Source: an uncultured virus (IMG/VR IMGVR_UViG_3300034061_003767) (lineage: Duplodnaviria; Heunggongvirae; Uroviricota; Caudoviricetes). Taken from it: a DNA stretch of 64,000 nucleotides. Position 1 is the first letter of the stretch. Each line of letters begins with the position of its first letter. The position numbers were made by a program, and so were the translations under genes. The stretch lies in IMG/VR virus record IMGVR_UViG_3300034061_003767; one strand, 5' to 3'. Below, piece by piece: positions 9,920 through 63,238 of the stretch. The notes under the pieces are model-generated. The model was not told where the DNA came from and did no database searches. It worked only from the letters and a program-made list of their open reading frames with translations.

Positions 9920-10102
9920 ATGAAAACAGTACAGTTTAAAGATGTTCCTGTAGACAGTAATTTTAAAATGAATGATACAGAATACAAAAAAATCCAGGAA
10001 GAAAGAGTTAGTTGTTGCAGATTTAACAATGCTTGCTTGGCGAGCGACGCTAACCAAAAAACTGGAATTAAGCCACTAACAGAAGTACAGGTAGATGATT
10101 AA
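9920..10102 (+). CDS. small Cys-containing hypothetical protein
   Basis: AGGAG RBS upstream; 60 aa with SCC...C; coupled to neighbours. Confidence 0.6.
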   Translation: MKTVQFKDVPVDSNFKMNDTEYKKIQEERVSCCRFNNACLASDANQKTGIKPLTEVQVDD

Positions 10103-22536: not shown

Positions 22537-23143
22537 TGGAGGATATGCTTATGGCTATTTGTTTATGTCACAAAACAAAGAAGCAGAATACGTGTTTAAA
22601 GAATTACTTAATGAAATTAGACCATCTCGCATTCTAGAAATTGGCACATTTCACGGAGGTCTAACTCTAATGCTAAGAGATATTTTAGATTCATACAATC
22701 TACATAATAGCACTATTAAAACCTATGATATTAATAATCAAGAGTTTTTAAGACCTCTAGTAACAAATAGGAAAGTAGAAGTTATTACAGATAATTTATT
22801 TAATGGCGACTACAGCGATTTCAAGAACGAATCTAAAAAAAATGAAATATTAAACTTTATTCAACAAGAAGGTTGTTCGCTAGTGCTGTGTGATGGTGGG
22901 TGTAAAAGGTGTGAATTTAATTTGATAGCTCCATTATTAAAAAGTAATGATATCATTATGGCCCATGACTATGCTCCAAATAACGATTACTTTCAACACC
23001 ATATAAGGGGTAAAATTTGGGATTGGATGGAGATACAAGATAGCGATATTTATCAAGCTATTGTAGACAACAATTTCAAATCATTTAAAGAAACGTTAAC
23101 TCAACAAGCCGCATGGTGCTGTAAAATTAAGTCTAGCAGTTAG
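22529..23143 (+). CDS. class I SAM-dependent methyltransferase (CmcI/Methyltransf_24-like)
   Basis: ILEIGTFHGG, TYDI, LCDGG, IMAHDY; GGAG RBS before ATG 22529. Confidence 0.75.
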   Translation: MVDGGYAYGYLFMSQNKEAEYVFKELLNEIRPSRILEIGTFHGGLTLMLRDILDSYNLHNSTIKTYDINNQEFLRPLVTNRKVEVITDNLFNGDYSDFKNESKKNEILNFIQQEGCSLVLCDGGCKRCEFNLIAPLLKSNDIIMAHDYAPNNDYFQHHIRGKIWDWMEIQDSDIYQAIVDNNFKSFKETLTQQAAWCCKIKSSS

Positions 23144-34820: not shown

Positions 34821-37800
34821 CTATGAGTTCGGGGAAGCGCCCATAGCTCCACCTGTTTTATCCCAAATCTTGCCCATTGCCTTCTTAATTTCTGATTGCA
34901 TCATAGTCTCAAAATCTTTCTTTAAGCCTTCAAATGCTGCGGCTCCACTAATTCTCACATCAACAACGTGATTACCCCTCATTTCTATAACATCAGGGAT
35001 TGTTGGAAATTCAAATGTTACTAATTTATCCACATAACTAGCAAAATTAGTATTAAATGTATTTAATTTTTCAATACTAGTTGGATCTATAGTAAGTAAT
35101 TGACCTTCTGTTGGTGTTGTTGATGGTATTTGTTGTGTTGTGGTTTGTTGGTTTATAAATGACGCTTGAGGAGGCATAGTAACCGGAACAGGAGCGGATA
35201 CTACTCGATTAGCCGCATTAGCATTAGCTAGTTCCAATCTGTTTGGAGTAATAGGCTTATCACTTACTTGAGGTTGAGGAGTAGCCATGTTTTGGATAGC
35301 GCCGACCGCATTACCCGCAACATAGCTACCCAAAGCTCCCGCAGGACCCATAGCTGTTTGTAAGGCTTGGCCTGTACTCATTTCAACTCCAAAAGCTCCC
35401 GCTATTGCTTTGATAGGGGTTGCTATAACGTCTAATGCTGTGGCTATCACAGGAGAAATAGCATTAATTGGCGCTAATAGTGCGGATACTCCTGCGGATA
35501 CTTGATTTATTGCTGGAGTAAATACTGAAGCAATAGCTGCTAGTGTTGCATCTTTGGTATTTATACCCTCGGATAATGAGGCGATAGCCATTTGTTCTAA
35601 TGCGGCGAACGGAGCTTGTAGGTTGTTCAATGCCTCTAAAACTTTAGCATCACTAACAGCTAATCCTGGTTCTCCGCTAGCAAGAGAGCCAAGGGTATTC
35701 ATAGATTCTAATAGAACATCTAGTCTTTCTTGTAATCCAACATCATGAGTATATATGCTTCCGCTTTGTAGTGCTGCTGTTGCCATTTGAGCAACTAGAT
35801 CTAGAGGACTTTGTAATTGGGCTACTGATGTTTGAACTCCTTCTGTGGCCGATTTAACTTCTGTGTCGGTTTTTCCTTCTGCTACTGGACCAGATACCTG
35901 AGCAGCATCTAGAGGAGAAGGTTGACTAGTTACTTGACCTTGTTTTTCTTCTGCTGTTTTACTTTGTTCGGCTAATATTTGTTTTTGTTTTGCTAGTTCT
36001 GCTTGTTGAACAACTAAAGCCTCCTTAGAAGCATCTAAGCTACTTTGTGCTCCTAAAACATTTGGGTTAACAACTTGTCCACTCTTGTCTTTTAAAGTTC
36101 CAGCTCCCATAGCAGCAATTCTGGCTGCTTTTAATTTATTTTCTCTCTTAGCAATTTCTTTTTGTCTATCTGCTATTAGGGGTTCTAAATTTTTAATTTC
36201 TGCGGCAGCAGCTTTTTTTGCTTCTTCTTTTTGTCTAGTAGCTTTATCTTTGACCGGTTGTTCAGTACCCGGGGCTGGAGGAGCTTGTATGGGTGCTTTT
36301 GGAACACCGGCCACTTCTACTTTTGTTTGTGATGGAATAACTACCTGTGCTGATGGCTTAGCAACAGTACCAGCGGCTACTCTACCACTACCATCAGTAG
36401 CTACTGGCCTACCACCCTCTCTGGTTTGTACAGCGCGATCAATAGCATCTTGTGCTTTAACTTTGTTTGCTTCTGTTTGTTTAGTTTTTTCTTCTGCTTT
36501 TGCCCAATATGCTCTTTGAGCCTCTAGTGAGGTTTCCATTTCTCTAACCGCTTTATCTTTTGCTGCTAATGGGCCAAACTGACTAACAGTTTCTTTTCCT
36601 CCAGCTATCATTTGTTTAGCTTTTCTTTCTTTAGTATTAACAGCTCTAACTTCTTCTGAGCTAGAGAAGTATCCTAACTTATCTCTATCTTTCTTTGCTT
36701 CATTTAATAGTGTTTGACCTTGATCTATTTGTGCTTGTCCTTCTGATACTCTTGTTTCAGCATACGACGGTTCTGGTGGTTTTTTCTCCGGTTTAACTTC
36801 TGGTTTTGTTTGAGCATCCGTCTGTGCGTTGGCTGCGGCATTCGCCACAATATTTGGAAAATCTTCTGTTAGTTTTTTCCCTAAATCCATCATAGCTGCT
36901 GCTAAAATTTCTGATTGTGTCTGATATATTTTTCCTAATTCAATGTTTGCTTGAGCTTGTATTTCTGTTGCTTCTCTATAGGCAATAACATTAGGATCGG
37001 TTTCGTCAATGCCTCCTTCTAATCTTTTAGTTAATTCATCTAATGTTATATCTTTGCCAGCAATATTTTTAACAACATCTGTTCCTTTAAACGCTTGGCC
37101 AGTAGCTGGATTGATTTGAGATTCAAAACTTTTTCTAATCAATGAGGCTCGTGTTTGATTATACTCATCTTTAGTCATAAATCCACGCTCTTGTTCTAAT
37201 CCAGCAAAAGCATTTTGTCTATTTTGTCTACTCTCAAAAAATTCTGGACCAGATACTTGAGCAGCATTAAGGGCTACCGCTTGAAGTTCCATCTTGGCTA
37301 ATTCTTGAGGTTCCGCAGTAAATACCTTTTGTGCAAAGTCCGCAAAACCTTCTATTGCTTGTTGTTGCTCCTGAATTTTGCCTAAAGCATTCGCGGCCTT
37401 AGTGCCATCATTAGCCAATTTTTCTAATGCTTGGCGACCTTCTGCGGATGCTACCGTTAACTCTCCTACAGCTTGAATATTTTCTAATTGAGCTTGATTA
37501 AGCTGTTGTCTTAATGGATCTCCTGCTGGACCAGCAGGAATATTAGCTCCTGCTGCGGTTAATTCTGGGCTAGCTTTTTCTATTGCTTGTTTTCTTTTTT
37601 CTGCTGATGTAATTGCTGCGGCAATAGCTGTGGGATCAGATGATGCTCCAGCAGCAAGGTCTCCAGACTGTACTAATCCACCAGTTAGACTAGATATTTC
37701 CGCATCAAATGGTTTATTTAGTTCTTCTAAGCTAGGACTTCTACCAAGAGCTTTAGCAAGATCTAATTCTGCATTTAATCTAACTTGATCAGCCTTCCTG

Positions 37801-40800
37801 AGATATGATCCACTTTCTAAGATAGCTTTATTATAATCTGCTTGGAATTTTCTAGCTTGTTGTAGCGTATCATTGTATTTTTTAGTAACATTTTGTAGCT
37901 GTTCCAAACCTTTACCAACTGTGGAAAATGATTTTGTTACCGTGTCTTGTAGTTCAGCTTCTGATAAACCTTGTCCTTTAGCCAATTCATTTTTGAGATC
38001 TCCCAATATGGTATCTATAGCTGAACCTTCTAATCCTTGACTACTTAGTAAGTTTTTAACAGCCTCTAGTGCGTTATCTTGAGCGTCTGTATCTTTTCCT
38101 GCTGTTCTAAGCAAAGCTGGAATTTGATCTTGAACAAGTTTTTGTCCTACTGCTTGATTAGCAAGATTTTGTGCTTCTGGAGTACCTCCTAAAAATCCTG
38201 CTGTTGCGTTTGCTGCTGCTCTTACTTCTTCGGTTGAATAAGCTGAAACGTTGCCTAATACTTGTTCATTTGTTCTATTGACCTCTCTAGTACTAGTATC
38301 TCCACCCAAACCAGAGACAAGAGCATTTACGTCAGAACTAAACTGGTCCAATTCATCGCTATATCTTTGAGCTTCAGCGCCTATTCTTCTATAAACATCT
38401 AATAAGCTTTCTGTAGCTATAGCAACTTGTTTTGTGGCTTTAGCTAATAAATCTTGTTTAGCTGCTAATTCTCCTTGTGTTTTTAGTGCCTCTTCACCTT
38501 CTTTTTGTGCTGCTCCTCTGTTGCTAGAAATTTCTTTAGCTATCTGCTCATCTGTGGCGCCAGATTCTTTACGCTTTTTCATATAAGCATCTAAAGCTGC
38601 TCGTTCTTTGGCCTGAACAGTAATGCTTTTTGTTTGTTCTGCTGTTAGTTGTTTTGTTCCATTAGCAGCTTCTGCTGCTTTTAATGCTCCTTGAATATAT
38701 TGTTCTGTTATGGGGTTCAATTCGCCCGTACCAGTTTTAATATTATCAAATATTTTACCTACTTCTTCTGTGGATTTGAATTTTAATCCAGATTCGGCGA
38801 GCCTAGCAGCAGATTCATTTCTTTGACCGGCTCCTCCAACCATAGATCCTATAGCTTCTGTTCTTTGTGCTTCACTAGGAGCACTAAAATAGTCAACCAA
38901 TAAACCTCCTCCAGTAGCGCCAAAAGCTGTTTGTAGTCCTCCTAATACTATCTTACTAATATCTCCTTCGGCAAAACCAGTGGATACCTTGTCTACGCCT
39001 CCAGTAAAAGTTGATCCTATACTTTCAACTCCAGTTTTACTGAACGCTAAATCTTCTATAGGTTGACCGGCTGCTAAAACATCTCCAAAAGCTTTTTGAG
39101 CATTTTCAAGATTAACAGCACTAGCTTCTGATTCCAGTTTTTTAAATGCTTGATCTAAGTCTCCAGTAGTTTTAGCAATATTCTCTAGAGCGTTGGTAAG
39201 TATGGCTTGATTTTTACCACTAAAGAATCCTTGAATACCTCCGATAATTGCTCCTCCAACACCACCAATAAGTGTTCCTATCGGCCCAGCAAAGCTACCC
39301 AATTGGGCTCCTATCGCCGCTCCGCTACCAGCGCCTCCTAGAGCCCCTAATGCCCCAGCAGTATTTGGGTCACTTGTTACGCTCTTTGGTAGAAATTGTT
39401 TAAGAGCTTCCGCACCTGTTGCTACTCCAGCACCAATGCCAGTAAATCCTCCAGCACCAGCAAAAGCTCTACTTAACTTGCCACCCTTACCACTAATAAA
39501 ATCAGCTCCAGCTCCAAGACCTTTGCCGATACGAGTTTTAGAAAATTTTTCTGTTAATCCAGGAGCAAATTCTGCTAATCCGCCAAATCTTTGACCTTCT
39601 TTACTAGATATAAATTGTTGTTCTTTAATTTTTTGTGGAGAAATTTCTGCTCTTAAAGATTGTTCGCTTAATCCTGCTGCCTCTGCCACTCTTTTAAAAG
39701 CTTCGTCTAAATTTTGAGTTTCGGTAAATGTTTTATTAAATACTGCTTGAAGTTCGCTATTAGCTTCTATGATTTGTTTAACTGACTGATCTCCTTTTGC
39801 CAATCCTTCTGCCAATTTTGTTGCTGCTTTTCTAGCTTCACCCAAGCCTAGGTTAGGATCCACTTTACGCAAACTGGCTGCAAATTCTTCTATAATGTTT
39901 TGAACCTTAGATGCTTCTTCTCCAGTTGCTCCTTCTGCTGTGGCTTTGGCCACATCAACACCCTGAAGCTCTCTTGCTCTACCAGCAAATGTTGTTTGCG
40001 CTTCTGTTTTTGCAAATTGTCTTTCTTGTCCGATAGCGTATGCCTGAGTTCCTATTTGTTTGGTTAAATCTTGTCTAAAGCCACCAACTGTTTTTCCAGC
40101 TTTTTCTGCTTTATAAGCAAAAAATTGTTGTTGTTCTTGTCTAATTTGTTCGTTTACTTTTGGCATTCCAGACATTCCTGTTGCTGAAGCATCTGCTGCT
40201 TTTTTAGCGTCATAGAACGGGTCTGCTGCTCTAGCTTTAGTTTCCCTTAGTTGTTCTACCTGTTGTCTTTTTGAAGTTGCTATTTGTTCAGGGACTTTCG
40301 CTTGTTCTGTTTTTATTTCACCGGTTTGAGCCGCTTCTATACTGGCTTTGGTATCTGCTATAGCAGATCTTTGTTGTTGTATTAAATTGGCTTCTTCTTT
40401 AGAATTTTTACCAGCAGCAGCTATTCTCGTAGCATAGAAAGCTCTAATATTATCGACTTCTGTTTGTAATATATCTTGATATTTTTGAGTAACATTTTTA
40501 CGAACTTGTTCCATAGCATCGGCAACTTCTTGATCGGCAGTTTTTTGCAAATCTGATTTTGCTTTTTCTTTATTGGCGTCAGGAGTATTAGTCGATACTG
40601 TCGCTGCTTTTTTTGCCTCCTCTACATCTACTGCTTTTTGTCTAGCCTCTGCTACCTTGTTTGTAGCTTGCGATTTTCTTGATTGTGTTTCTCCTAGTTG
40701 TGTCTCCGCTGCTTTTACTGCATCTTTTGCTGTTTGTCTTTCGGTTTGAGTTGAAGATTTTCCAAGGTTTTGTTTTCTTTTTTTAGCTTCTTCTAATTGT

Positions 40801-43800
40801 TTTTTTGCAGCGTCTTGAGCTTCGGTAGCAGCTTTCAGTTCGTCTAAAGCAGCTTTCTCCTGTTTTTGAGCTGATTCTTCTCTGTATTTTAGAACTTTAC
40901 TAGATACAGGGTCAATAGTTGATGATCCACCAAAATCTTCTCTAACCACACCGACAGCTCTTGCTTCTTCTCTTGTTAGTCCACCTTCTCTAGATTTAGC
41001 TGTATATGCTTCTTTTCTTTTTTTGCGTTCTTCTTTACTAAGCCTACCTTCTTGTTGTGGTTTTGGTTTTTTTTGTTTATCATTTGGTGGATCTGGTGGG
41101 CTTGGTGGAAATACAAAAGATGGTCCAGATGGTGGAGCTGGTGGTAAACCAGATGGTGGAATAATTGGTAATGGAGGTTGTGGTTTAGGTGTAGATGCAG
41201 AAGTGTCTATGTCGGAAGCTTCTAGTCCAGCATATGTATATCCGGTTTCTCCTAAAGTCTTAGCCAATTCTGCCATTCCGGTTTTAGCGTCGGTTGTAGA
41301 GGTTATAATTGCCCTAACTTCTGGACTAGCTTTAGCAAAAAACTCTGCAAATAATTCTTTACCACGTAATAAATAATCATTTATTCTATTACTACTTTCT
41401 CCAGCTGCTATAAATGCTTCTTCCATTTGTTTTCTAATTTTAGCAACCAATTCGAATTGAAAGGTTCCTTCAATTTCACTAGCAGCTTTACCCCCACCCA
41501 ACTCAAAGTCTGCTAAATGACCAGTTTCATGAGCTACTGTTTCTGTTGTTGCTCCACCTTTTTTACCGGTTATTTTTAAGCCTATAGCAGCGGCTGATTC
41601 TGAGGAGGCAGCTTGTCCTCTTGTATTTTCTGTAAAAGCTGGGGTACCACCCATTAAACTCTCGCCCGGCTCTAAATCTTTTAATCCTTTAAATTTTTTC
41701 AATAAAACTTCTCTTATTTGATCCGGTAACTGAGCCATTATTTGTGCTAAAACAGCGCCAGCTTGCTCTACATCCTGTAAGATTTCTCCTTGTGCTCTTT
41801 TTGCGTCTTTTTTGTTTTGTCCACCTTTAAAGAATTTTCTAACTCCAACACTACCCCCTTTATTTAATCCCAAAGCCTTAGTAGCTTTTTCTCTTATAAC
41901 ATAGCTACCTGTTGGTAGTCCTATGGGACCAATACTATCACTAGTTCCACTACCTGGCCCATTAAATACGCTAATACCACCACCGGCAAATCCTTTCATT
42001 CCGTTGCGATCAGCTTGATTCATCTTATCTAATTTAGCGTAACCAATTTTCTTAGCTACTTTTGGAGGAACAAAAGCTTCTCCATTACTAACCATAGCTG
42101 GAACAGTGCCAGAACTTCCTCCACCAGCAAGTTTTTGTACTAAGTTTGGATTATTAATATCTGATGGACTTTTACTATATCCACTTTGTAATATCCATGC
42201 TGGGTCTGTAGCTGATGGCCAAGTATCTGGTGGGCCATATAATTTTTCATCTAAAAGTCTACTATTACTGACCCAATTCTCGGGGTTCAAAGGCGTTTTC
42301 TTAACATCAGATCTATTATTAAAATAGTAAGCCCATACACTCTTAGCAGCATCGCTTACTGTTCTTCTGTCTGACGTAAGCATACCACCAGCGGCTGTAG
42401 CAGCCTCCATAACAATATCATAAAGTTTTGGACCATACCCCTTTGTGGCAGAAGATGATTGCACAGCATAGAGCCCACCTCCTATGCTATCGGCAATAAC
42501 CTGTCCAGATCTTGCTGCCGCTGCTTCTCCCTCTTTTATGTATGTGGCTTGTATTCTATTTCCTGTTCTTAAAGCAACTTTACCAAAATTCTTTTGTGTT
42601 TGGCTTGATGTAGATTGAACCGGTTCGGCTAGTAAGCCACCAGCCGCTAATTGTTCTGGATTCATTAACTTAGCGGCTAATTTATCAGAATATGCTTGTA
42701 ATTGTTTGAGATTTCCTGGCTGTTGGAAATTTAATCCACTGTCACCAGATAAGCCACCCTTTGATTTAAGAGCGCCCATTAAGTTGTAACCGAAAGCGCG
42801 TTTTCGTTTGCTGATTCTGAATTGTATTTCTGGATATTTATCAATTATCTGTTGTTTAATTTCTTCAAATCCTGGACCATCAGCTTTGCCTCCGAAAGCA
42901 AAATTTTGAACTATATATTTTTGAGCCTCTGCCCATAATCTACTAACAGCACTACTATCATTAGTGCGCTTAGTATCTGTTGGCATCTTGGGATCGATTC
43001 CCCATGTATTAGCAGCATATCCTAAGCCACTAGGATAGTCTATAGGTCTAAGAGGATTAGCGTCATCCGAAGAAATTCCAATCCCTAATTGTTTAACAAT
43101 TTCTTCCAGACCATAACCTTCCATAGCAGCTATTGCTCTGTTTGAAGACTGATTAGCAGCACTTATATTTTGTGGTTCTCTATAAAGATAACCCAATTTA
43201 CCAGCACCTGTAACGGCTCCGATATTTTCTAAATTATCATCTACTAAAGTTTCCAATTCAGCAAGATTATCTACTTTATTCAATCCTCCACTAACTCCTG
43301 TGATCTTACTCTCTGGTATCGGTAATCCAAGAGAGGATAATTTTGATGCTAAAAGCGGAGCATTACTTTGTGGTCTGGCTGTTAGTACTCGTATTTTATC
43401 CATTAATTCTGGATAATCTATTAATCTTTTTGCTAGTTCTTTACCCAATAGTGTTAGCTTAGAGTTTTGCAGCGAGTCTCTAACTTTTTTCAAGTCACTA
43501 TAGTCTTCATTTTTCTTACCAGGAATATCTGCATCTTTAACAAGAGTTTCATCAAAATCAAAAGCTAATGGACCAATCGCTCCAAATATATCTGTATATT
43601 GAAATTGTTCTGCTCCTCTGGCTGGCAACCCAGCAATATCTTGTTGTATTTTAGATACAGCGTCAGCGTATCGTGTTGGTAAACTTTTACGAACTAGCTG
43701 TGTTAAATATTTTGTGCTTCCATCCTTACCTAATAATTCTTTTGCACTAGTAATATTAGAGTATCCAAGTTCTCCATTAGGTCCATATAAACTAGCTAGT

Positions 43801-46800
43801 CCAAACTTAAGACCTTTTCCCGTAGCAGCTTGTTCATTGAGTTGTTTTTGTCCTGCTTGTTGTGCTTTCTCAGCCTCTTTTTTTTCTTCTGCTTGTTTTA
43901 ATAAAGGTTCAATAATTTTTTCTAATAAGGAACCATTATCTAAAGATTTTAATGAGGGAAGTGTTAATAGTTGTTTCGCGGTGCCTACTTTTGGCATCAC
44001 CGCTCTAGCTTTTGCTACGGCTTTTTGAATTTCATCATAAGAAACATTTGCAGTAATATAACCACTACCACCAACTTTTTGTATTCTATCAAGAATTTGT
44101 TGTGAAATTTTTCCAACAGGAGTTTCTACACCACCAACTGATCCGGCCATAAATTTTTGTACTAATCCGCCATTAGCAAAATTTTTAGATTCTGGAATAG
44201 CTTGTCTCATAGCCCAAGCAAAATGAGATGCTCTACCAGTAACGGTTGGAAGAATATCTTTTTGATAATCTTTAGCTTCTTGTATAGCATTGCTAGCTTT
44301 TACAATTTTATCAAGAACGCTCTTGCGAAGTTTCTCGTCTTGAGTTTCTGATAACTCTTTTTCTAAAGATTTTCTGAAAGCAATAAGTCTCTCTGGAATA
44401 TCTGGAATTTCATCTAGTAATGGTTTACCAGATATAAACTCTCCACTTTTAGCAGATTGTTCAAATCGTTTTAAGAATCCGCCTTTTGTACCTGAATCTT
44501 TTTGATATCTGGCTATGGTTGCTTCTAAAACTTCCTTCGGTGCTCGCGGAGCTTGTTCAGCATACTTTAACAAGACATCCATAGGGACATTTTCTAAGCT
44601 AGATGAATCAACTCCGCCTGCTGTAGCAACCATTTTGCGCAAAGTTCTGGCGTCCATCTTTCTATGTACAGAGGCTTTAATTTTTTGTTCAGAGGCGAAC
44701 GGAGATATTTTTTCTCTCCAAAAGCCTTTTTTGCCTAAATAAGTTGTTAATTCAGATTCTAGTTCTGGTACTATTCTTTCTTGTGGTACTTCAACAAACT
44801 CATTCCCGATAACCATACCAGCACCAGCAGTACTAAATATATCATATGCTTGATCCTTAGCGTATCGTATTAGATCTTCTGTGCTAAGTTTATAGATTTC
44901 TTCTTGTGTTAATTCTTTGAACTTGCTACGAGCGCCCCGGGCTCCAGTTTTACCTCTCCCTTTACCGCTAGGAACATTAACGCCACCGACCGATCCAGCC
45001 ATAAATTTTTGTACTATCCCACCCAAACTTAATGGAACATCAAAAGATGTATCTTCTCCTTCTTCAAATACTACTGCTCCGAAATTTTTTCTATTTTTTT
45101 CTCCCCCTGTAGCGCGATCTAGATATTTCTGAATTTTAGGTTGAAATAATTCTGGAGTTGCTCGATTTTTAGATAGTCTGGCATCTGTTGGCAAACCTAT
45201 CAATTTGGTATTATCAAAAGCAGGAACATTACCTGGCCAATTACTATAATCGAAAGTTCCTCCAGCGCTTTCTTTAGTACCTCTTGGTTTAGACCTTCTA
45301 AGAGTTTGTTCTAATAAAGAACCTTTAACACTTCTATATAATCTAAAGTTTTGAATAGAGGATTTTGTTTCATCTATTCCTTTTTTACCAGGAGGTAAGA
45401 ATTGTGATTTACCTTTATTTACTATGTCTGCTAATCCTTGGTCAAGATAATCTGTATTAATAAATCCTGGCTCAGCATAATCGACAAAGACTTTTGCCTT
45501 ACCTCCTTTAGCTAGTTTATTCATTTTAGCTAAATTGCCTCTTCCGTATTTTTGAGCAGCTTGGTTGTTGATCACAACCTCTCCGGGTTCTAGCATAGCA
45601 GGAACCTTATCTCCCTTTCCACTGCCTGGAACAATACCCCCCTTATTAAATCCTAATACCTTACCCCCACCTCTCAGAGTTGATGATCCTCTAGATCTCA
45701 TGGTACTATCTAAACTTTGTACTGCTGATGTTAATGTTTTTAGAGCATCTGTATTTAATCTAATAGCATCTGCTGCTTTTGCTGTTACTTCTGCTCTTTG
45801 CTTCTCTTTAGCCCCACTTAAACTTTCTCCAATATTTTGACCAGCACCACCAGCGCCACCACCCTTTTTCAGACCGCCAAAAAAACCTGTGGCAAATTGC
45901 CCGATGGCGCTTACTCCTTTAATAGCTCCAAATACAGCTAAGATTGGCAATATTGGCTTAAATGCGCTCGCAAGACTGAGCAAGCCGCTAGTTAAACCAA
46001 CCACGATTTTGAAAAATCCTTGAAAAACAGTGCTTTGCCCAACCTCACGAATCAAACCTAAAAATTGTTCACGAACTTTTGCTATTTGATTAGCTAAGCT
46101 TTGTTGTGCTTTTATCTGAGCGTCTGTTAAGCTGCTTTGTCCTCTTTGAGCAACACCCAAAGCTTGTTGTGCTACTGCAAATTGTTGAATTAAAGGAATG
46201 ACTTTACCGATTTGTCTAAATCCACCAAGTTCTTCTACTATTGTTGAAAATCGAATATCTCTGGGATCTAATTGATTAAGAGCATCACTAAGTCTTCTAA
46301 TAGCTTCAAACGGACCAACGAACTTGCCTTCAAGATCTTGTAGTTCCACACCAAATTGTTTTAGTTGTTGGATAGTGCTACTTCTTTGAATTCTTGTAAA
46401 AATTGTTCTTAAGCCGGTAGCAATAGTCTCTGCACTTTCACGAGTAGTTTGACGAACACTAGTAAAAATAGCAATAAACTCATTTAGAGCATCGGTACCT
46501 TCGCTAACTCCTTTACTAGCACTAGCGAACACACCACCAGTACGCTGAATAGCAGCAATAATATCTCCAGATTCAACAGCGAACGCTGCTGCAACAGCAT
46601 TGATACTACCTAGTGCTGCTTCTAGCTCTCCTGCTTCTAATCCGAACTGTCTAATCGCAGCAATGGCACCTTCTGTGGTTTTAGTTAGGCTTTCGAAAGA
46701 TGGAGCCAGTTCTGTCTTAGCCAAAGCTTTAAGCGCTATTCTGGTTTCTTCCACACTCAAACCCGCCTGGGCTAATGTTGAGGTAACTTCTAATAGTGCT

Positions 46801-47390
46801 GTGCTACTCACTCCCAAACTTATTGCTAAATTTGTAATTTCGTCTTGTAGAATTTTTACACCCGTTGCTCCTCGACCAGTAACTTGTTGTAGTCTCACAA
46901 GTTCTTTGTCAAAATTTATAAATTCTTTAAAAGCACCAGTGACAGCATTTGTTAAAGCAAATATTCCTGTAGTAACCACAGAGAACGCCGCAAAACGACG
47001 AATAGCAAGAGCACTCTGCTTACCAAATTCTTCCATTTCTGTTCTAGCTACTTTAATGTCTTTAGCAACCTTTTCAATATTTTGAGAAGTTTTTCTAACG
47101 CCTCCAGCAGCAGCATTACTAGATGTTTGTACTGATCCCAAAGAACTAGACATATCTCTCAATGTTTGATTTAGACTAGTGGCATTACTTCTTACACTAA
47201 CTAATACTTTATTCATAGCAGCAAGTCTATTAGTAGCTGTATCTATAGACTTCAGTGCTTTATTATCTATATTAAGAGAAATATCAGTATTAACAGAACC
47301 TAGCTGTTTTCTAATTTGACTAACAATCGGTTTAAGATTTGTTGGTCCTCTTAAATTAATTTGTGCAGTAAGGTTGAAAGGTGATGCCAT
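34821..47390 (-). CDS. tape measure protein (4189 aa) with internal enzyme-like modules
   Basis: TP901-type core (FDKELVRL...LAQAG...RESAETIATGLRTIFTRI), long Ala/Gln-rich helices, Gly-rich hydrophobic segments, position after tail tube and chaperones. Confidence 0.9.
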   Translation of the reverse strand: MASPFNLTAQINLRGPTNLKPIVSQIRKQLGSVNTDISLNIDNKALKSIDTATNRLAAMNKVLVSVRSNATSLNQTLRDMSSSLGSVQTSSNAAAGGVRKTSQNIEKVAKDIKVARTEMEEFGKQSALAIRRFAAFSVVTTGIFALTNAVTGAFKEFINFDKELVRLQQVTGRGATGVKILQDEITNLAISLGVSSTALLEVTSTLAQAGLSVEETRIALKALAKTELAPSFESLTKTTEGAIAAIRQFGLEAGELEAALGSINAVAAAFAVESGDIIAAIQRTGGVFASASKGVSEGTDALNEFIAIFTSVRQTTRESAETIATGLRTIFTRIQRSSTIQQLKQFGVELQDLEGKFVGPFEAIRRLSDALNQLDPRDIRFSTIVEELGGFRQIGKVIPLIQQFAVAQQALGVAQRGQSSLTDAQIKAQQSLANQIAKVREQFLGLIREVGQSTVFQGFFKIVVGLTSGLLSLASAFKPILPILAVFGAIKGVSAIGQFATGFFGGLKKGGGAGGAGQNIGESLSGAKEKQRAEVTAKAADAIRLNTDALKTLTSAVQSLDSTMRSRGSSTLRGGGKVLGFNKGGIVPGSGKGDKVPAMLEPGEVVINNQAAQKYGRGNLAKMNKLAKGGKAKVFVDYAEPGFINTDYLDQGLADIVNKGKSQFLPPGKKGIDETKSSIQNFRLYRSVKGSLLEQTLRRSKPRGTKESAGGTFDYSNWPGNVPAFDNTKLIGLPTDARLSKNRATPELFQPKIQKYLDRATGGEKNRKNFGAVVFEEGEDTSFDVPLSLGGIVQKFMAGSVGGVNVPSGKGRGKTGARGARSKFKELTQEEIYKLSTEDLIRYAKDQAYDIFSTAGAGMVIGNEFVEVPQERIVPELESELTTYLGKKGFWREKISPFASEQKIKASVHRKMDARTLRKMVATAGGVDSSSLENVPMDVLLKYAEQAPRAPKEVLEATIARYQKDSGTKGGFLKRFEQSAKSGEFISGKPLLDEIPDIPERLIAFRKSLEKELSETQDEKLRKSVLDKIVKASNAIQEAKDYQKDILPTVTGRASHFAWAMRQAIPESKNFANGGLVQKFMAGSVGGVETPVGKISQQILDRIQKVGGSGYITANVSYDEIQKAVAKARAVMPKVGTAKQLLTLPSLKSLDNGSLLEKIIEPLLKQAEEKKEAEKAQQAGQKQLNEQAATGKGLKFGLASLYGPNGELGYSNITSAKELLGKDGSTKYLTQLVRKSLPTRYADAVSKIQQDIAGLPARGAEQFQYTDIFGAIGPLAFDFDETLVKDADIPGKKNEDYSDLKKVRDSLQNSKLTLLGKELAKRLIDYPELMDKIRVLTARPQSNAPLLASKLSSLGLPIPESKITGVSGGLNKVDNLAELETLVDDNLENIGAVTGAGKLGYLYREPQNISAANQSSNRAIAAMEGYGLEEIVKQLGIGISSDDANPLRPIDYPSGLGYAANTWGIDPKMPTDTKRTNDSSAVSRLWAEAQKYIVQNFAFGGKADGPGFEEIKQQIIDKYPEIQFRISKRKRAFGYNLMGALKSKGGLSGDSGLNFQQPGNLKQLQAYSDKLAAKLMNPEQLAAGGLLAEPVQSTSSQTQKNFGKVALRTGNRIQATYIKEGEAAAARSGQVIADSIGGGLYAVQSSSATKGYGPKLYDIVMEAATAAGGMLTSDRRTVSDAAKSVWAYYFNNRSDVKKTPLNPENWVSNSRLLDEKLYGPPDTWPSATDPAWILQSGYSKSPSDINNPNLVQKLAGGGSSGTVPAMVSNGEAFVPPKVAKKIGYAKLDKMNQADRNGMKGFAGGGISVFNGPGSGTSDSIGPIGLPTGSYVIREKATKALGLNKGGSVGVRKFFKGGQNKKDAKRAQGEILQDVEQAGAVLAQIMAQLPDQIREVLLKKFKGLKDLEPGESLMGGTPAFTENTRGQAASSESAAAIGLKITGKKGGATTETVAHETGHLADFELGGGKAASEIEGTFQFELVAKIRKQMEEAFIAAGESSNRINDYLLRGKELFAEFFAKASPEVRAIITSTTDAKTGMAELAKTLGETGYTYAGLEASDIDTSASTPKPQPPLPIIPPSGLPPAPPSGPSFVFPPSPPDPPNDKQKKPKPQQEGRLSKEERKKRKEAYTAKSREGGLTREEARAVGVVREDFGGSSTIDPVSSKVLKYREESAQKQEKAALDELKAATEAQDAAKKQLEEAKKRKQNLGKSSTQTERQTAKDAVKAAETQLGETQSRKSQATNKVAEARQKAVDVEEAKKAATVSTNTPDANKEKAKSDLQKTADQEVADAMEQVRKNVTQKYQDILQTEVDNIRAFYATRIAAAGKNSKEEANLIQQQRSAIADTKASIEAAQTGEIKTEQAKVPEQIATSKRQQVEQLRETKARAADPFYDAKKAADASATGMSGMPKVNEQIRQEQQQFFAYKAEKAGKTVGGFRQDLTKQIGTQAYAIGQERQFAKTEAQTTFAGRARELQGVDVAKATAEGATGEEASKVQNIIEEFAASLRKVDPNLGLGEARKAATKLAEGLAKGDQSVKQIIEANSELQAVFNKTFTETQNLDEAFKRVAEAAGLSEQSLRAEISPQKIKEQQFISSKEGQRFGGLAEFAPGLTEKFSKTRIGKGLGAGADFISGKGGKLSRAFAGAGGFTGIGAGVATGAEALKQFLPKSVTSDPNTAGALGALGGAGSGAAIGAQLGSFAGPIGTLIGGVGGAIIGGIQGFFSGKNQAILTNALENIAKTTGDLDQAFKKLESEASAVNLENAQKAFGDVLAAGQPIEDLAFSKTGVESIGSTFTGGVDKVSTGFAEGDISKIVLGGLQTAFGATGGGLLVDYFSAPSEAQRTEAIGSMVGGAGQRNESAARLAESGLKFKSTEEVGKIFDNIKTGTGELNPITEQYIQGALKAAEAANGTKQLTAEQTKSITVQAKERAALDAYMKKRKESGATDEQIAKEISSNRGAAQKEGEEALKTQGELAAKQDLLAKATKQVAIATESLLDVYRRIGAEAQRYSDELDQFSSDVNALVSGLGGDTSTREVNRTNEQVLGNVSAYSTEEVRAAANATAGFLGGTPEAQNLANQAVGQKLVQDQIPALLRTAGKDTDAQDNALEAVKNLLSSQGLEGSAIDTILGDLKNELAKGQGLSEAELQDTVTKSFSTVGKGLEQLQNVTKKYNDTLQQARKFQADYNKAILESGSYLRKADQVRLNAELDLAKALGRSPSLEELNKPFDAEISSLTGGLVQSGDLAAGASSDPTAIAAAITSAEKRKQAIEKASPELTAAGANIPAGPAGDPLRQQLNQAQLENIQAVGELTVASAEGRQALEKLANDGTKAANALGKIQEQQQAIEGFADFAQKVFTAEPQELAKMELQAVALNAAQVSGPEFFESRQNRQNAFAGLEQERGFMTKDEYNQTRASLIRKSFESQINPATGQAFKGTDVVKNIAGKDITLDELTKRLEGGIDETDPNVIAYREATEIQAQANIELGKIYQTQSEILAAAMMDLGKKLTEDFPNIVANAAANAQTDAQTKPEVKPEKKPPEPSYAETRVSEGQAQIDQGQTLLNEAKKDRDKLGYFSSSEEVRAVNTKERKAKQMIAGGKETVSQFGPLAAKDKAVREMETSLEAQRAYWAKAEEKTKQTEANKVKAQDAIDRAVQTREGGRPVATDGSGRVAAGTVAKPSAQVVIPSQTKVEVAGVPKAPIQAPPAPGTEQPVKDKATRQKEEAKKAAAAEIKNLEPLIADRQKEIAKRENKLKAARIAAMGAGTLKDKSGQVVNPNVLGAQSSLDASKEALVVQQAELAKQKQILAEQSKTAEEKQGQVTSQPSPLDAAQVSGPVAEGKTDTEVKSATEGVQTSVAQLQSPLDLVAQMATAALQSGSIYTHDVGLQERLDVLLESMNTLGSLASGEPGLAVSDAKVLEALNNLQAPFAALEQMAIASLSEGINTKDATLAAIASVFTPAINQVSAGVSALLAPINAISPVIATALDVIATPIKAIAGAFGVEMSTGQALQTAMGPAGALGSYVAGNAVGAIQNMATPQPQVSDKPITPNRLELANANAANRVVSAPVPVTMPPQASFINQQTTTQQIPSTTPTEGQLLTIDPTSIEKLNTFNTNFASYVDKLVTFEFPTIPDVIEMRGNHVVDVRISGAAAFEGLKKDFETMMQSEIKKAMGKIWDKTGGAMGASPNS
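44131..45016. repeat. 34-bp imperfect direct repeat flanking a TMP module
   Basis: 44131-44164 and 44983-45016, 31/34 identical, both encoding VQKFMAGSVGG. Confidence 0.85.
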
Positions 47391-59107: not shown

Positions 59108-61147
59108 TTATCTATAAATTCCTTTATATATATCATCGTTAGCTGCTCCTGTAAACCAAGTTGGTCCTTTATATAGTTCTCCGTTAGTACTCTTTTTAAA
59201 ATCATCACGTAAATTTGATCCTATAATATCAAATGTCACTGGAGTTAAACATCTATTTATTTGCCTTGCTAACATGTTTGCTATGATTAGAGCGCTATAT
59301 CTATCTTTTCTTAACTTGCCCTTTTTACCATTAGGAAGTTTAACTTCTGGAGTATCCCATCTATCTCTTCCTCCTGAACCTGTACTTGTTTGACTCATAA
59401 CAATAGTTGTAAGCTCGTTTTTTAGTTCTTCTATTTCTAGAATACAATCGCTTTGATTATCATATATATTATTAAAATCTGTTTCCATAATATCTTTATT
59501 TTCTTTGTCCAAAGCTAAAGCTAAACTAATTTGGTCAAATCTTGGAAATAATAAAACTTTATCTTCTAAATCTTTCCTAAGACCATGATTAGCTTGACTA
59601 GTCCAGTCTGCTCTAGCAAATTGAACTAATTCTAAAATGTGAAGTCCTGGCTGATCATCTGTATCTTTTGGTTTGTTGTTATCTATAGTTGGCCAAATTA
59701 AAGATTCTCCGTCTTCTAACTTACCAGGATCGTGTAAGGCTTCTTCTATGGCTACTCCTCCACCCTGAGCATCCATGCCAATTTTGGCTGGTGGAAAAGT
59801 TTTCATAAGATTACGTATTTTTCTAGCACAAAATCCATAAAAATCATATTCATTAACCAGTCCTGTTTTTTGTCTATCTTTAAAATTATTTCGATTGGTG
59901 GTCCAACAGTATACTATCCGAGAATGATCAGGATGTATTTCTAAAACCACTATACTAAAATTATCTTTCTCTGAAGCTGGATCTATTCCATAAACATATT
60001 CTAAGTTGAGATTTCCTGTTGTGGACGAGTCGAATACTACAGTTTTACCATTTATAATGATAGGTTTAGTTTCGCTAGCAATACAGCTCTCTATAAGACT
60101 GCGTCTAAAAAATCCATCGCTATCTTCTGTAAAACATGCTGCGTATTCCATGTTGTATATACCGGTATGTATTGTGGCCTTAGCTCGACTAACTTGTTTA
60201 TCATCCATAAAACCTTTAGGAATAAGTTCATATGGTATACGCACAATACTGTAGTCTTGCCAATTAAAATTATCTGGTACTTCTCCTTTAAAAATTTCTT
60301 CTAGTTTGTGTTTGTCTCCACGACTTTCGATAATTGTTTTGTATCTTTTCCAGTAACTAGCAAAGTGTTTAAAGGCGTAGTCTGCTGTGCCGGATATGAT
60401 CGCCTGATTACCTTTTTTGATTTGGACTGCTTCTAATTCATCATTCCATAGTCCTGCTTCTGATAGTGCTTTCTTTTTAGCTTCTTCTTTAACGTTTTGG
60501 ATTGGATTGGCCGACACGGCTGCGAAGCCTGATACTACTGTTTCGTAAATATCTGGTGATATTGATGCGAATTCGTCTGCGATGATAATATGCGCTCTTA
60601 AGCCTCTAATCTTGCTACCATCACCCATAGGAACCGCTATTGTCCAACTTTCACCTAGTCTAATAGTGCATCTATCAACATCTCGACGCGGACCATCATT
60701 GTTTCCTGTGAAGATGCTTCGTAATATGGGACTATTTCGCCACAACGTTTCCATATATTCAAATATGATTTTACTCTGTCGAAAAGCAGCACCCACAACC
60801 ACGATTTTTGTTCCTGGCACAAGCATACAACGTAACACACAATATAGTGCCATCAAAAAGCTTTTACCAAAACCGCGAGAGGCTATAAACATAGGAAATG
60901 GTCTTACCCAAAATTCTTGTAAGATAGCTATTTGAATTGGATGAAGCTCTATATCAAATAACAATTTACAAGTACTACCAAAATACTTAGGATTTCTAAG
61001 CAGTCTTAACAAATGAAGATCAGGATTTTCTATATCTTCCTTTATCCTTCCGATCATAGGATTAGTATCAACTATGATTTTGGAAAGATCACCAAGACCA
61101 AGCCAAGCGTCCTCAAAGATTTTTTTATTTTGTATGATACTGTTCAT
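59108..61147 (-). CDS. terminase large subunit
   Basis: LHPIQ, Walker A SRGFGKS, IRGLRA.IIIADE, RNase H-like GIDPA..D and KDRYSAL. Confidence 0.9.
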   Translation of the reverse strand: MNSIIQNKKIFEDAWLGLGDLSKIIVDTNPMIGRIKEDIENPDLHLLRLLRNPKYFGSTCKLLFDIELHPIQIAILQEFWVRPFPMFIASRGFGKSFLMALYCVLRCMLVPGTKIVVVGAAFRQSKIIFEYMETLWRNSPILRSIFTGNNDGPRRDVDRCTIRLGESWTIAVPMGDGSKIRGLRAHIIIADEFASISPDIYETVVSGFAAVSANPIQNVKEEAKKKALSEAGLWNDELEAVQIKKGNQAIISGTADYAFKHFASYWKRYKTIIESRGDKHKLEEIFKGEVPDNFNWQDYSIVRIPYELIPKGFMDDKQVSRAKATIHTGIYNMEYAACFTEDSDGFFRRSLIESCIASETKPIIINGKTVVFDSSTTGNLNLEYVYGIDPASEKDNFSIVVLEIHPDHSRIVYCWTTNRNNFKDRQKTGLVNEYDFYGFCARKIRNLMKTFPPAKIGMDAQGGGVAIEEALHDPGKLEDGESLIWPTIDNNKPKDTDDQPGLHILELVQFARADWTSQANHGLRKDLEDKVLLFPRFDQISLALALDKENKDIMETDFNNIYDNQSDCILEIEELKNELTTIVMSQTSTGSGGRDRWDTPEVKLPNGKKGKLRKDRYSALIIANMLARQINRCLTPVTFDIIGSNLRDDFKKSTNGELYKGPTWFTGAANDDIYKGIYR

Positions 61148-61589
61148 ATATTCTTTTCATTAAACTAGCAGAAAATTTTTCCGCATTATCAGAATCTCCG
61201 CAAAATACTACTTGTATGTTATATTTTAGTTGTATTTCAATTAGTCTTTTGATAATATAATTACCACTAATACGCAATTTGTCCCATAGCTTTTTAGGAA
61301 TATCACTACCAACTGGAAAACTGTATACTTCATCTAAAGAAAATTCAAAGACCATATATGGATGTTTAATTTTACTTAATCTATCTAAAACATCCGAGAA
61401 TCTACTTTCGCTCAAATTAGTAGCTATTTCGCTAACACTCTTTTTTCTTTCTATAGCTAGTATATTTTCAAAACCTTCTATAGTATAATCTCCGGTATCT
61501 AGCTTTTTTTTAGCCGTATTATGGAAACCAAACTCCCAAGGAATTTGTTCTCTTGTATCAATTATAATTGTAAAAGGGTCTTGATTCAT
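61125..61589 (-). CDS. ERCC4/XPF-type nuclease
   Basis: IIIDTREQ, LDTGDY, IERKKS. Confidence 0.82.
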   Translation of the reverse strand: MNQDPFTIIIDTREQIPWEFGFHNTAKKKLDTGDYTIEGFENILAIERKKSVSEIATNLSESRFSDVLDRLSKIKHPYMVFEFSLDEVYSFPVGSDIPKKLWDKLRISGNYIIKRLIEIQLKYNIQVVFCGDSDNAEKFSASLMKRIYEQYHTK

Positions 61590-61843
61590 TTTAATAATAA
61601 TTTTGTAAAGAATTCTCTATAACTATCTTCATCATTTTTTATGAGCTCGTGATGCAGTCTACAGAGAGTTATACCGTTTTGAGGATGATATCTTAGACCG
61701 GGGAAATCGGCCCATCTGTATATGTGGTGGGCTTGTAATTTTTTAGTATTAGTACAGTTTGGCCATTGACACTTGTGATTGTCTCGAGCATATATTTTTT
61801 TGCGCCATTCTTTATATTGGGGGTCTTGATAATTTCTAGTCAT
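61586..61843 (-). CDS. HNH endonuclease (packaging-associated)
   Basis: RDNHKCQ..C...AHHI...NGITLC..HH. Confidence 0.85.
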   Translation of the reverse strand: MTRNYQDPQYKEWRKKIYARDNHKCQWPNCTNTKKLQAHHIYRWADFPGLRYHPQNGITLCRLHHELIKNDEDSYREFFTKLLLK

Positions 61844-62645
61844 CTAATACTACGCTTTCATGATTTAAGAATGGGCGATCTACAGTATTGTCTTGGTAGT
61901 TGTGATAACCAAATAAATCTTTTTGATATTTTTGTGTGGCCATATGTAAAATTTCCATTTCTTTGCCCTCTTTTTCTCTTAATTCTTCGTCTTCTAGCAT
62001 TCGTATTAGTCCTACCCAGCTACTTTTTCCGTCTTCTATTCTTTTTATTCGTTGTTCTCTAGTAGCTTTTAAATCTTTTCCTATTTTTTGTTGTTCTCCT
62101 AAAAGTTTAGAATATTCGTTAGTATAACTACTAATACTATTTCTAGCAAAACTTAATTGGGTTTCTAGATTAGCTAGTCGTGGAATATCTCTTTGATCTT
62201 CGGGTTTTTCATATTCTTTATCTACTAATTTTTGCAGTTTTTCCGTTTCCGATATGTGTCTTTTTCGCTCTTTCATACTACGATTAATTAGAATATCTAT
62301 AGTAATAAATTGTTTAATTTGAATTTCTTCAGCGGGTAAAACATCCTCTCTAAATTGTTTAATTAATCCTATCCAAATACTTTCAAAATATTCTAGTTCG
62401 CCGCTTTCTTCATCGAATTGGCGCTCTATTTCGTACCAAAAACTTTTACTATGTAGTTTTCTTAAAAGAACTTCATTTTCACTTTTTTCTTCTGTAGAAA
62501 ATAATCTATTTTCATCAATATATCTATTGATAGGGTCTATATTTCTATTTAAACTATTAGCAATTTGTTCTATGCTTAGTTGACCAATGCTATCTCGTAT
62601 GAATTTTTCTTCGTCTAAGCTTAATTGTCCGCGTTTTTTTGCCAT
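61836..62645 (-). CDS. HTH + coiled-coil protein, candidate terminase small subunit
   Basis: N-terminal LSIEQIANSLNR HTH; coiled coil ending LKATREQR; upstream of terL. Confidence 0.45.
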   Translation of the reverse strand: MAKKRGQLSLDEEKFIRDSIGQLSIEQIANSLNRNIDPINRYIDENRLFSTEEKSENEVLLRKLHSKSFWYEIERQFDEESGELEYFESIWIGLIKQFREDVLPAEEIQIKQFITIDILINRSMKERKRHISETEKLQKLVDKEYEKPEDQRDIPRLANLETQLSFARNSISSYTNEYSKLLGEQQKIGKDLKATREQRIKRIEDGKSSWVGLIRMLEDEELREKEGKEMEILHMATQKYQKDLFGYHNYQDNTVDRPFLNHESVVLDD

Positions 62646-63238
62646 AAAATTTCTCTTATATGACTTAGTAATCTATCTTTGTCGCTTTTGGGTACTTTAC
62701 TGCCATTTTTAAGTTTGAGATAAATTAGCCGAAATTCCCCATTAAGATTTTCATCTAGTATTTTTAGTATTTCTATATTTTCTAAAGAATTAGTTCTATG
62801 ATCTAGAAAAATATTACTATAATCTTTAGTTTCTTCTAGAGTGGTAAGATGCATCAAATTCTTTTTATTTTCGTTTCTTTTGCTCCATGTTTCGTATAGA
62901 TCACAATCATATTTGTTACTATATTTTGTGCAGAGAGAATTTTTCTTGTCGAAAAGAGGACAAGAGTAACAGGGTTTGTCGGGCCTTTGATAGTTATCTC
63001 TTTTGTAATTAAAAAGTCGATTGCGAACGTGGGTCCAAAGAAAGTTTTCTAGGGGCCTTTTGTGATCATAATTTTTTAACCCTTCCAAAGCAAAAATGCT
63101 TATCTGTTGCTTCATATCTTCTATATCATGATAGCCAAATTTAAATTTGTAGGCTAATTTTTTAGTAATAATATCTATAACTTTTAATAGTTCGTTTTCA
63201 TCAATCTGGGGATTCGGTCTTTTTTTCTTCTTTTTCAT
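62621..63238 (-). CDS. phage-encoded sigma70-family factor
   Basis: Region-2-like DIEDMKQQ..IFALEGLKNYD..RPLENFLWTHVRNRLFN; Cys insertion. Confidence 0.7.
   Translation of the reverse strand: MKKKKKRPNPQIDENELLKVIDIITKKLAYKFKFGYHDIEDMKQQISIFALEGLKNYDHKRPLENFLWTHVRNRLFNYKRDNYQRPDKPCYSCPLFDKKNSLCTKYSNKYDCDLYETWSKRNENKKNLMHLTTLEETKDYSNIFLDHRTNSLENIEILKILDENLNGEFRLIYLKLKNGSKVPKSDKDRLLSHIREILWQKNADN

Follow-up and report, generated by a model that had tools for sequence, protein, structure and literature searches.

Results

A giant tape measure gene with recurring joints

The DNA analysed here is a stretch of 64,000 nucleotides from an uncultured tailed virus (IMG/VR record IMGVR_UViG_3300034061_003767), referred to as the window. 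A single long open reading frame (ORF) on its minus strand encodes the protein P0001. PF10145 (PhageMin_Tail) was found in this protein at aa 183-376 in the Pfam scan (E 6.6e-21, 75.5 bits against a cut-off of 33.2), the N-terminal part matched four PHROG tape-measure families, and on its sequence P0001 is a tail length tape measure protein (TMP) of the TP901/PhageMin_Tail type. An earlier, sequence-only reading of this gene had pointed to the region at window positions 41090-45670, i.e. aa 574-2101 (the codon of residue i of P0001 has its first base at window position 47390-3(i-1)), as an array of enzyme modules bounded by a recurring [FL]xxGG motif, and had proposed that the array is cut at these motifs. 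The elements carrying the motif are called joints in the following. The conserved core ends with a hydrophobic stretch (aa 455-499 in a hydropathy scan); it is followed by a glycine-rich stretch, the first joint unit, the modules, a proline-rich spacer and a C-terminal half of about 2,000 aa (Table 1).

Table 1. Features of the tape measure gene, with window coordinates, strand and residues of P0001.
Feature	Window position	Strand	Residues (aa)	Remarks
Tape measure gene (P0001)	34821..47390	-		single ORF, 4,189 aa
Conserved N-terminal TMP core	45873..47390	-	1-506	covered by 64-70/72 relatives
Gly-rich stretch	45825..45893	-	500-522	48% Gly; directly upstream of U1
Joint unit U1 (GGIVPGSGKGDKVPAMLEPGEVV...LAKGG)	45498..45659	-	578-631	unit profile independent E-value (i-E) 1e-25; in 68/72 relatives
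Module A	45033..45500	-	631-786	in 27/72 relatives; no residue >=95% conserved
Short joint 1 (LSLGGIVQKFMAGSVGGVN)	44976..45032	-	787-805	
Module B	44181..44975	-	806-1070	composite: B1 806-915, B2 ~965-1066
Short joint 2 (FANGGLVQKFMAGSVGGVE)	44124..44180	-	1071-1089	
Module C2	43146..43688	-	1235-1415	HAD-type phosphatase/nucleotidase-like
Module D	42651..42887	-	1502-1580	between FAFGG and LAAGG; in 30/72 relatives
Module E	42132..42635	-	1586-1753	autonomous domain family; in 39/72 relatives
Tandem joint units U2, U3	41817..42137	-	U2 1752-1797, U3 1798-1858	i-E 9e-17, 4e-16; in 64/72 relatives
Module F	41196..41819	-	1858-2065	zincin-like metallopeptidase signature; HETGH 1954-1958, ELFAE 2012-2016
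Proline-rich spacer	41061..41195	-	2066-2110	precedes the long C-terminal half; covered by 8-14/72 relatives

P0001 contains 13 [FL]xxGG motifs, all of them within aa 507-1962: LKKGG 507, LRGGG 572, FNKGG 581, LAKGG 626, LSLGG 787, FANGG 1071, FAFGG 1497, LAAGG 1581, LAGGG 1754, FAGGG 1801, LNKGG 1842, FFKGG 1853 and FELGG 1962. The eleven motifs listed by the sequence-only reading are all among them, LKKGG and FELGG being additional, and its two FMAGS variants were found at aa 796 and 1080. The 13 motifs of aa 507-2100 are to be compared with 2.29 +/- 1.50 in shuffled sequence (maximum 8 in 2,000 shuffles), while the remaining 2,595 aa of the protein have none against 2.07 expected. Likewise, Phe or Leu stood at position -3 of 13 out of 33 GG pairs inside the region and of none of the 26 outside.

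The joints occur in several forms. U1, U2 and U3 are copies of one element of about 55 aa, which opens and closes with the same hxxGG element. Their PGSG..VPAM..GE signatures (window 45579-45635, 42078-42110 and 41904-41960) lie where three such units had been reported, and when the window was scanned in all six frames, the unit profile scored with these three copies and with nothing else. The short joints are of the GG[IL]VQKFMAGSVGGV type, with LSLGGIVQKFMAGSVGGV at aa 787 and FANGGLVQKFMAGSVGGV at aa 1071, and FAFGG 1497 and LAAGG 1581 represent minimal forms. In 900 motif instances position 0 was Phe, Leu or Tyr in 92% and position +6 was Val, Ala or Ile; the joint peptide was kept on both sides of the GG whatever its neighbours were. 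Short joints 1 and 2 have 16 residues in common. Their DNA is 75% identical over 63 nt and includes one identical core of 15-17 nt. Since 8 of the common residues use different codons and the Gly codons vary across 18 joint instances from relatives, it is the peptide that is conserved and not a DNA tract.

Exchange of modules among the relatives

A search with aa 560-2100 yielded 72 giant relatives of 2,398-6,061 aa, which together with P0001 form a family of 73 proteins. Joint units were present in all 73, two to seven per protein, with 243 to 2,584 aa of cargo separating the first unit from the second. Each of the 14 complete TMPs from viral contigs (1,958-3,827 aa) had two or more units, with cargo in between.

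The coverage of P0001 by its relatives changed abruptly along the chain. Up to aa 630 it was 64-70 of the 72, at aa 631 about 27; further steps were seen at ~1071, ~1421, ~1500 and ~1600, U2-U3 were covered by 62-68 relatives, and drops followed after ~1860 and at ~2061. Within aa 600-2120, 166 of the 307 edges of high-scoring segment pairs were located within 12 aa of a motif, compared with 18% of the positions, and the clusters situated at motifs included the seven largest ones (48, 41, 40, 25, 19, 18 and 12 edges). When all pairs of 68 cargo regions were compared, 3,246 of 7,670 internal edges (42%) were near an [FLYM]xxGG sequence against a background of 13%. Segments produced by cutting at the motifs matched end to end in 22.7% of the pairs, those produced by random cuts in 1.5%, and shifting the cuts by +40 and +80 aa gave 15.2% and 9.1%, respectively. 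The motifs thus appear to bound modules largely, though not always.

The composition of the cargo differed from protein to protein. In addition to the counts of A, D and E in Table 1, B1 was present in 29 of the 72 relatives, B2 in 20, C1 in 36, C2 in 34, C3 in 50 and F in 24. These add up to 56 distinct presence patterns among the 72 relatives, and the order of the modules was changed in four of them (P0020, P0027, P0029 and P0043). On a FastTree tree of the core (conserved first 560 aa, 67 proteins), each module needed a minimum of 11-18 changes, compared with 16-23 after shuffling of the labels. Single exchanges could be followed to the residue: exactly aa 805-1073 (module B) are missing from P0006, whose one joint can be aligned to either of the two in P0001, and exactly aa 1505-1596 (module D) are missing from P0002. 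The same joint precedes module C1 in 39 relatives with quite different sequences upstream of it. The motif-delimited cargo segments of 70 proteins fell into 81 clusters, 40 of them singletons, and almost none was recognised by Pfam. The view of this TMP as a cassette-built carrier, whose relatives gain, lose and reorder modules, thus seems well supported, and judged from these alignments the joints are the main, though not the sole, places of insertion, deletion and reordering. The earlier suggestion of a swappable module carrier agrees with these changes and with the ADP-ribosyltransferase of a relative described below.

In the long C-terminal half of the relatives P0011, P0012, P0056 and P0065, two to four extra units of the GTDTVPAMLTPGEFVVN subtype follow one another at distances of about 800-1,600 aa; the C-terminal half of P0001 has none.

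The cargo modules

Modules of roughly 155, 265, 410, 80, 165 and 205 aa had been proposed, and these sizes were found again. The 410-aa segment (module C, aa 1090-1496), which had been taken as one module, turned out to be composite: it consists of C1 (aa 1090-1198), C2 and C3 (aa 1421-1496), and its inner borders carry no motif. It had also been proposed that several modules bear catalytic signatures. This holds for two of them, C2 and F, to which the clear signatures appear to be limited; no other clear case was seen.

In C2, the HAD motifs I (DxDxT), II (T/S), III (K) and IV (DD) are all present in order and strongly conserved in the relatives (D1278 34/34, D1280 34/34, T1282 32/34, T1337 34/34, K1372 28/35; D1384 and D1385 each 35/37). 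Comparison with the nucleotidase of Lactococcus phage 949 by hhalign gave a probability of 68.6% (E 4.6e-5). Curated HAD models gave no match above their cut-offs, and the Pfam scan gave no HAD family at E <= 10; the weak library matches were TIGR01681 (E 0.041, 14.7 bits against a cut-off of 35.75) and phrog_8630 (E 0.047). Free-standing homologs of C2 exist, as they do for B1 (125-127 aa; P0151 and P0156).

Module F carries the zincin-like signature, whose residues are nearly invariant (H1954 22/23, E1955 23/23, H1958 22/23, E2012 22/23 and E2016 23/23 relatives), and wherever it occurs it stands directly behind U3. FELGG 1962 lies inside this module, right behind the HExxH, and not at a module border. 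Pfam, NCBIfam and PHROG gave no match to module F, a profile search of PDB gave none at E <= 0.001, and no free-standing homolog of 114-364 aa was found. Its AlphaFold model is of low confidence (mean pLDDT, the predicted local distance difference test score, 55.8), with helices at both the HETGH and the ELFAE sites, and Foldseek with this low-confidence model returned nothing at E <= 0.001. As a lead only, PF07737 was noted in 17% of the members of one Atlas cluster. A second HExxH class (YHE[LM]THQL), distinct from module F, was observed in the cargo of P0064, P0065, P0068, P0070 and others.

Module E belongs to a family with many free-standing viral homologs of 115-260 aa, in which 28 residues are at least 95% conserved. 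Its profile had 0 matches in PDB, and again as a lead only, one Atlas cluster had Acetyltransf_1 in 13% of its members. Module A matched nothing in Pfam, NCBIfam or PHROG. More generally, scans of the single modules against Pfam, NCBIfam and PHROG gave sub-threshold matches only, the profiles of E, C2, F and B1 found nothing significant among the PDB sequences, none of 30 small homologs of E, C2 and B1 scored above a Pfam cut-off, and a word-based search for shorter proteins returned TMP fragments only. In the relative P0064, PF03496 (exoenzyme-type ADP-ribosyltransferase) was matched inside the cargo, at aa 1538-1653 of the protein, with E 1.3e-7.

The joint unit in lambda and other phages

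The unit profile, built from the P0001 family, matched the lambda TMP gpH at aa 732-785 (29 bits, i-E 4e-11), and in the alignment of this segment to the units the GG, G, G, GE, V, A, G, L and G columns were invariant. Since PF09718, the lambda C-terminal family of Pfam, covers gpH 627-701 instead and not the unit, the unit is without a library name; neither Pfam nor NCBIfam has a name for it, and single-sequence searches of PDB with the joints gave nothing. With U1 as the query, tblastn matched 256 phage records at E <= 1, mostly annotated tape measures among the matches listed. U1 could be aligned with the units of lambda gpH, a Nitrincola phage, the TMP of which matched the unit profile with i-E 8e-22, and Synechococcus phage S-SM2. 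The TMP of Gordonia phage Howe (NC_070817, 1-6513) has four units, at aa 985-1040, 1267-1333, 1652-1703 and 1992-2050 of the part examined, and an SLT transglycosylase domain (aa 1573-1663) between two of them.

Phage S-SM2 is a T4-like cyanomyovirus, and its protein (3984-6284) has one unit, at aa 333-383 (i-E 1e-21); it is annotated as a transmembrane protein and adjoins the baseplate hub gp26. The occurrence of the unit in this baseplate region means that it is not confined to siphovirus tape measures.

The order hydrophobic stretch, glycine-rich stretch, joint unit is identical in lambda gpH and in P0001 (aa 455-631). gpH, which is matured to gpH* and gpHC, differs from P0001 in having a single unit without any cargo, behind which a tip-binding tail of about 70 aa follows. 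In P0001, modules amounting to about 1,300 aa lie between and behind the three full units and the short joints, and the chain then continues for about 2,000 aa. According to PMC12617516, the cleavage of gpH falls in the glycine-rich C-terminal region near aa ~690-710, at an unknown site and by an unknown enzyme, and residues ~690-817, unit included, are unresolved by cryo-electron microscopy. Lambda gpK has JAB and NlpC/P60 domains and is described as predicted to cut at a C-terminal glycine of gpI (PMC1779556). The same protein might also cut gpH; this suggestion is our own and is found in none of the cited papers.

A relationship with the T5 TMP pb2 was considered and rejected. As described in PMC10038345, pb2 is cut after R1127 into pb2* and pb2C, between the hydrophobic stretch and the metallopeptidase-bearing piece, and pb2C stays in the tail. 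The cut region (FVPR before and AEGG after the cut), with AEGG..PG..GE.G.EVV as the start of pb2C, resembles the joint by eye only, and its spacing from F to GG differs from that of [FL]xxGG. A hidden Markov model profile of 698 unit instances gave no match at E <= 100, and hhalign of the last 125 aa of pb2 against an 18-sequence unit alignment gave a probability of 0.2%.

Gene neighbourhood

The TMP gene appears to be part of a minus-strand structural block. Upstream of it, on the same strand, are the genes of a terminase (phrog_2), a cement protein (PF22758) and a virion protein; the large ORFs downstream had no family match in the library scans. Genes for RecA, DnaB, a primase, a split DNA polymerase III alpha subunit, SSB and glycosyltransferases are found in the plus-strand half of the window. 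Inside the TMP gene promoters and terminators were not above chance, and no tRNAs were found.

The cargo region had no match at 1e-5 among 50,697 phage records (megablast and tblastn), and the N-terminal TMP core matched only distant TMPs of the SPbeta type. The phage of the window appears, by its sequence, to have no close cultured relative. The sequence of locus L003, from a viral contig, agrees with that of the window at every position over 21,920 nt.

Three side observations concern the other genes. The polymerase III alpha subunit is encoded by two plus-strand ORFs among 8047-9918, 10095-10781 and 10778-12394, one half with PHP and NTPase core, the other with finger, HhH and OB, and the gene of an RNase T-type exonuclease lies between them. 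The glycosyltransferases (GT1, HtrL/YibB-like and GlcNAc-transferase) form, with a methyltransferase, a plus-strand cluster (12896-14539, 18658-20304, 20279-21559 and 22487-23143) which adjoins the replication genes and may have a role in DNA or surface modification. Three minus-strand genes close to the terminase on its upstream side (61125-61589, 61586-61843 and 62621-63238) encode an ERCC4-type nuclease, an HNH endonuclease and a sigma-70 region-2 protein.

Discussion

The TMP as a probable cargo carrier

The observations are best explained by a giant TMP that was built as a cargo carrier, with the joints as its main module seams, and we would put the probability of this reading at about 80%. 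In this view the N-terminal part has the layout of an ordinary TMP, with the PF10145 core, the hydrophobic stretch, the glycine-rich stretch and one joint unit. Behind it come modules that can be exchanged independently of each other, about 1,100 aa in all, and then the tandem unit pair, the zincin-like module, the proline-rich spacer and the C-terminal half of about 2,000 aa. The joints are copies or fragments of the glycine-flanked unit of about 55 aa that is found once near the C-terminus of ordinary TMPs such as lambda gpH, and selection keeps them at the peptide level. From the known behaviour of tape measures it is expected that the protein would lie inside the tail tube and leave it at infection, bringing the HAD-type phosphatase, the zincin and several domains of unassigned function into the host. 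The joints would then serve as seams between separately folding modules, and maturation cleavage may take place in at least one of them, the lambda-like seam at aa ~500-630.

Several points weigh against this explanation. Although the largest edge clusters coincide with motifs, only 8 of the 19 clusters with at least three edges on P0001 do so, and in the whole family 204 of 622 (33%). Clusters at ~915 (12 edges), ~1419 (12) and ~2061 (16) are away from any motif, and the homology borders at ~1200-1235 inside module C carry none either. The sharpest exchanges, those of P0006 and P0002, do run exactly from joint to joint. Cuts shifted by -40 aa gave 20.5% end-to-end pairs, hardly below the 22.7% of the motif cuts. 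Since the relatives were picked by their likeness to the cargo region, the sharing of modules is overstated. Modules A, B2, C1 and D have neither a residue conserved to at least 95% nor a family match, so the designation "enzyme" is unsupported for them. Finally, delivery into the host, folding after ejection and any activity of the cargo are steps that we infer.

Are the joints cut?

The sequence-only reading took the TMP for a polyprotein, which would be cut at most or all of its [FL]xxGG joints, in tail maturation or after ejection, and would so release effectors. Conservation of the joint peptide on both sides of the GG, at the peptide and not the DNA level, is consistent with a recognition of this kind, and there are partial precedents: the homologous unit of lambda lies within the fragment that lambda cuts off (PMC12617516), the T5 cut comes just before the enzymatic C-terminal piece (PMC10038345), and zincin-mediated self-processing has been proposed for polyvalent proteins (Iyer et al. 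2017, PMC5512222). An HExxH was found in 37 of the 73 family proteins, where about none was expected; these, however, fall into at least two classes, and since the other 36 proteins have no HExxH at all, the zincin, with module F in only 24 of 72 relatives, cannot be the universal processing enzyme. Further points count against this reading. The lambda cut is unmapped, and its approximate place at aa ~690-710 precedes the unit; the T5 cut region has no detectable homology to the unit; and gp96 of phage P23-45, which lacks the unit, is reported as full-length in virions (PMC10770324). The likeness to LxGG-cleaving viral proteases that had been invoked could not be substantiated. Prok-JAB, C39, C48 and NlpC/P60 peptidases (PF14464, PF03412, PF02902 and PF00877) were each found in 0 of 5 related records (4 complete), with positive controls responding, PF00770 not having been searched; S78 peptidase was absent from the related records, and there was no peptidase family among the 52 other ORFs of the window. 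A ClpP-like gene of 225-242 aa was present in four of the five related records (G002-G005, loci L048-L051; complete, 153-238 kb). In G002, where alone the coordinates were compared, a long distance separates the ClpP-like gene from the TMP gene; no such gene was seen in the window. Autocleavage through a conserved Ser, Thr or Asn before the GG was rejected, the -1 residue being N, K, L, F, A or G in P0001. Taken together, the polyprotein reading is doubtful, and so is processing at most of the joints; cleavage at the lambda-like seam seems somewhat more likely than that.

Alternatively, the joints could be seams only, that is, uncut linkers (flexible hinges or small beta-hairpin clasps) which let the modules fold alone and the chain pack in the tube, and which became swap points because insertions are tolerated there. 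The glycine-flanked and hydrophobic-anchored motif, the units that start and end with hxxGG, the uncut precedent of P23-45 gp96 (PMC10770324), the absence of a dedicated protease from the window ORFs and the five related records, and the lack of cryo-electron microscopy density for lambda residues ~690-817, which would fit a flexible segment (PMC12617516), all agree with this. A mere flexible linker, however, would not need 15-19 residues kept across unrelated neighbours, nor conservation between phages as distant as lambda, the Gordonia phages and the cyanomyoviruses, and we regard purely passive seams as a serious candidate at somewhat less than even odds. It may also be asked whether the joints are short homologous DNA tracts that drive cassette exchange in co-infection, the peptide itself having no role. 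Indels running exactly between two joints with one joint left behind, and the identical 15-17-nt core in both window joints, are what such a mechanism would leave. It is contradicted by the divergence of the two joints elsewhere (75% identity over 63 nt, 8 shared residues on different codons), by Gly codons that vary freely across the 18 instances, by conservation of the unit as a protein in very distant phages and by the trend here, where synonymous sites are no more conserved in the joints than in the flanking modules. On the codon evidence a DNA repeat or recombination signal was rejected as the main reason for the conservation of the joints, and this reading is improbable. A bolder version of the processing idea would see the unit as a general maturation tag recognised by a tail-assembly or host protease, which giant TMPs multiplied into a programmable multi-effector polyprotein that is cut in the tail or on ejection into enzymes. 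We consider it rather unlikely, even a little more so than cleavage at most joints.

Comparison with related systems

The reading of P0001 as a cargo carrier can be set beside other TMPs and delivered proteins. Thermus phage P23-45 gp96 (5,002 aa, with a fused virion RNA polymerase), the most thoroughly studied of the cargo-carrying TMPs, is likewise a giant one, and its enzyme is described as working after ejection (PMC10770324). Unlike P0001, it has one N-terminal cargo, no array and no unit (no match at E <= 10), and no HExxH either. An enzyme domain inside the TMP is also known from T5, TM4 and P1 Sit (as given in PMC9024508) and is present in Howe; each of these has one wall-degrading domain, in contrast to the multi-module array of P0001. 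The recognisable cargo here, the HAD phosphatase and, in a relative, the ADP-ribosyltransferase, looks cytoplasm-directed, unlike the wall enzymes.

The polyvalent proteins of Iyer, Burroughs, Anand, de Souza and Aravind (2017) similarly carry many unrelated domains in one delivered polypeptide, and a zincin-like peptidase is described as their commonest domain (PMC5512222). By the same measure P0001 has two domains with catalytic signatures, the autonomous family E, and four modules without assignment. Unlike P0001, the polyvalent proteins are head-packaged or delivered by conjugation, and no conserved joint peptide is described for them; the term "tape measure" does not occur in PMC5512222. 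In the actinobacterial contractile injection effectors of the Sle1 type (Nagakubo et al. 2026, PMC13277306) a TMP-derived scaffold likewise carries exchangeable domains. They differ from P0001 in that a single functional domain is placed at the C-terminus and in that they belong to a bacterial nanomachine; the abstract mentions no joint motif.

No published description of this joint and cassette pattern in TMPs was found in the full-text literature, subscription journals not being covered.

Meaning for phage biology

If the TMP is indeed a cargo carrier, phages would have, apart from the capsid, a second way of bringing ready-made enzymes into cells, namely through the tail lumen, and this route would have a plug-in architecture. 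The cargo of the P0001 family would then offer many candidates for proteins that act early, either modifying the host or countering its defences, and should the units prove to be maturation tags, its dozens of module families would form a fast-evolving arsenal for host takeover or anti-defence. The joint also provides a conserved peptide next to the cut of lambda gpH, for which the place and the agent of cleavage have long been an open question. For studies of such cleavage, Gordonia phage Howe would be a practical cultured model with several units.

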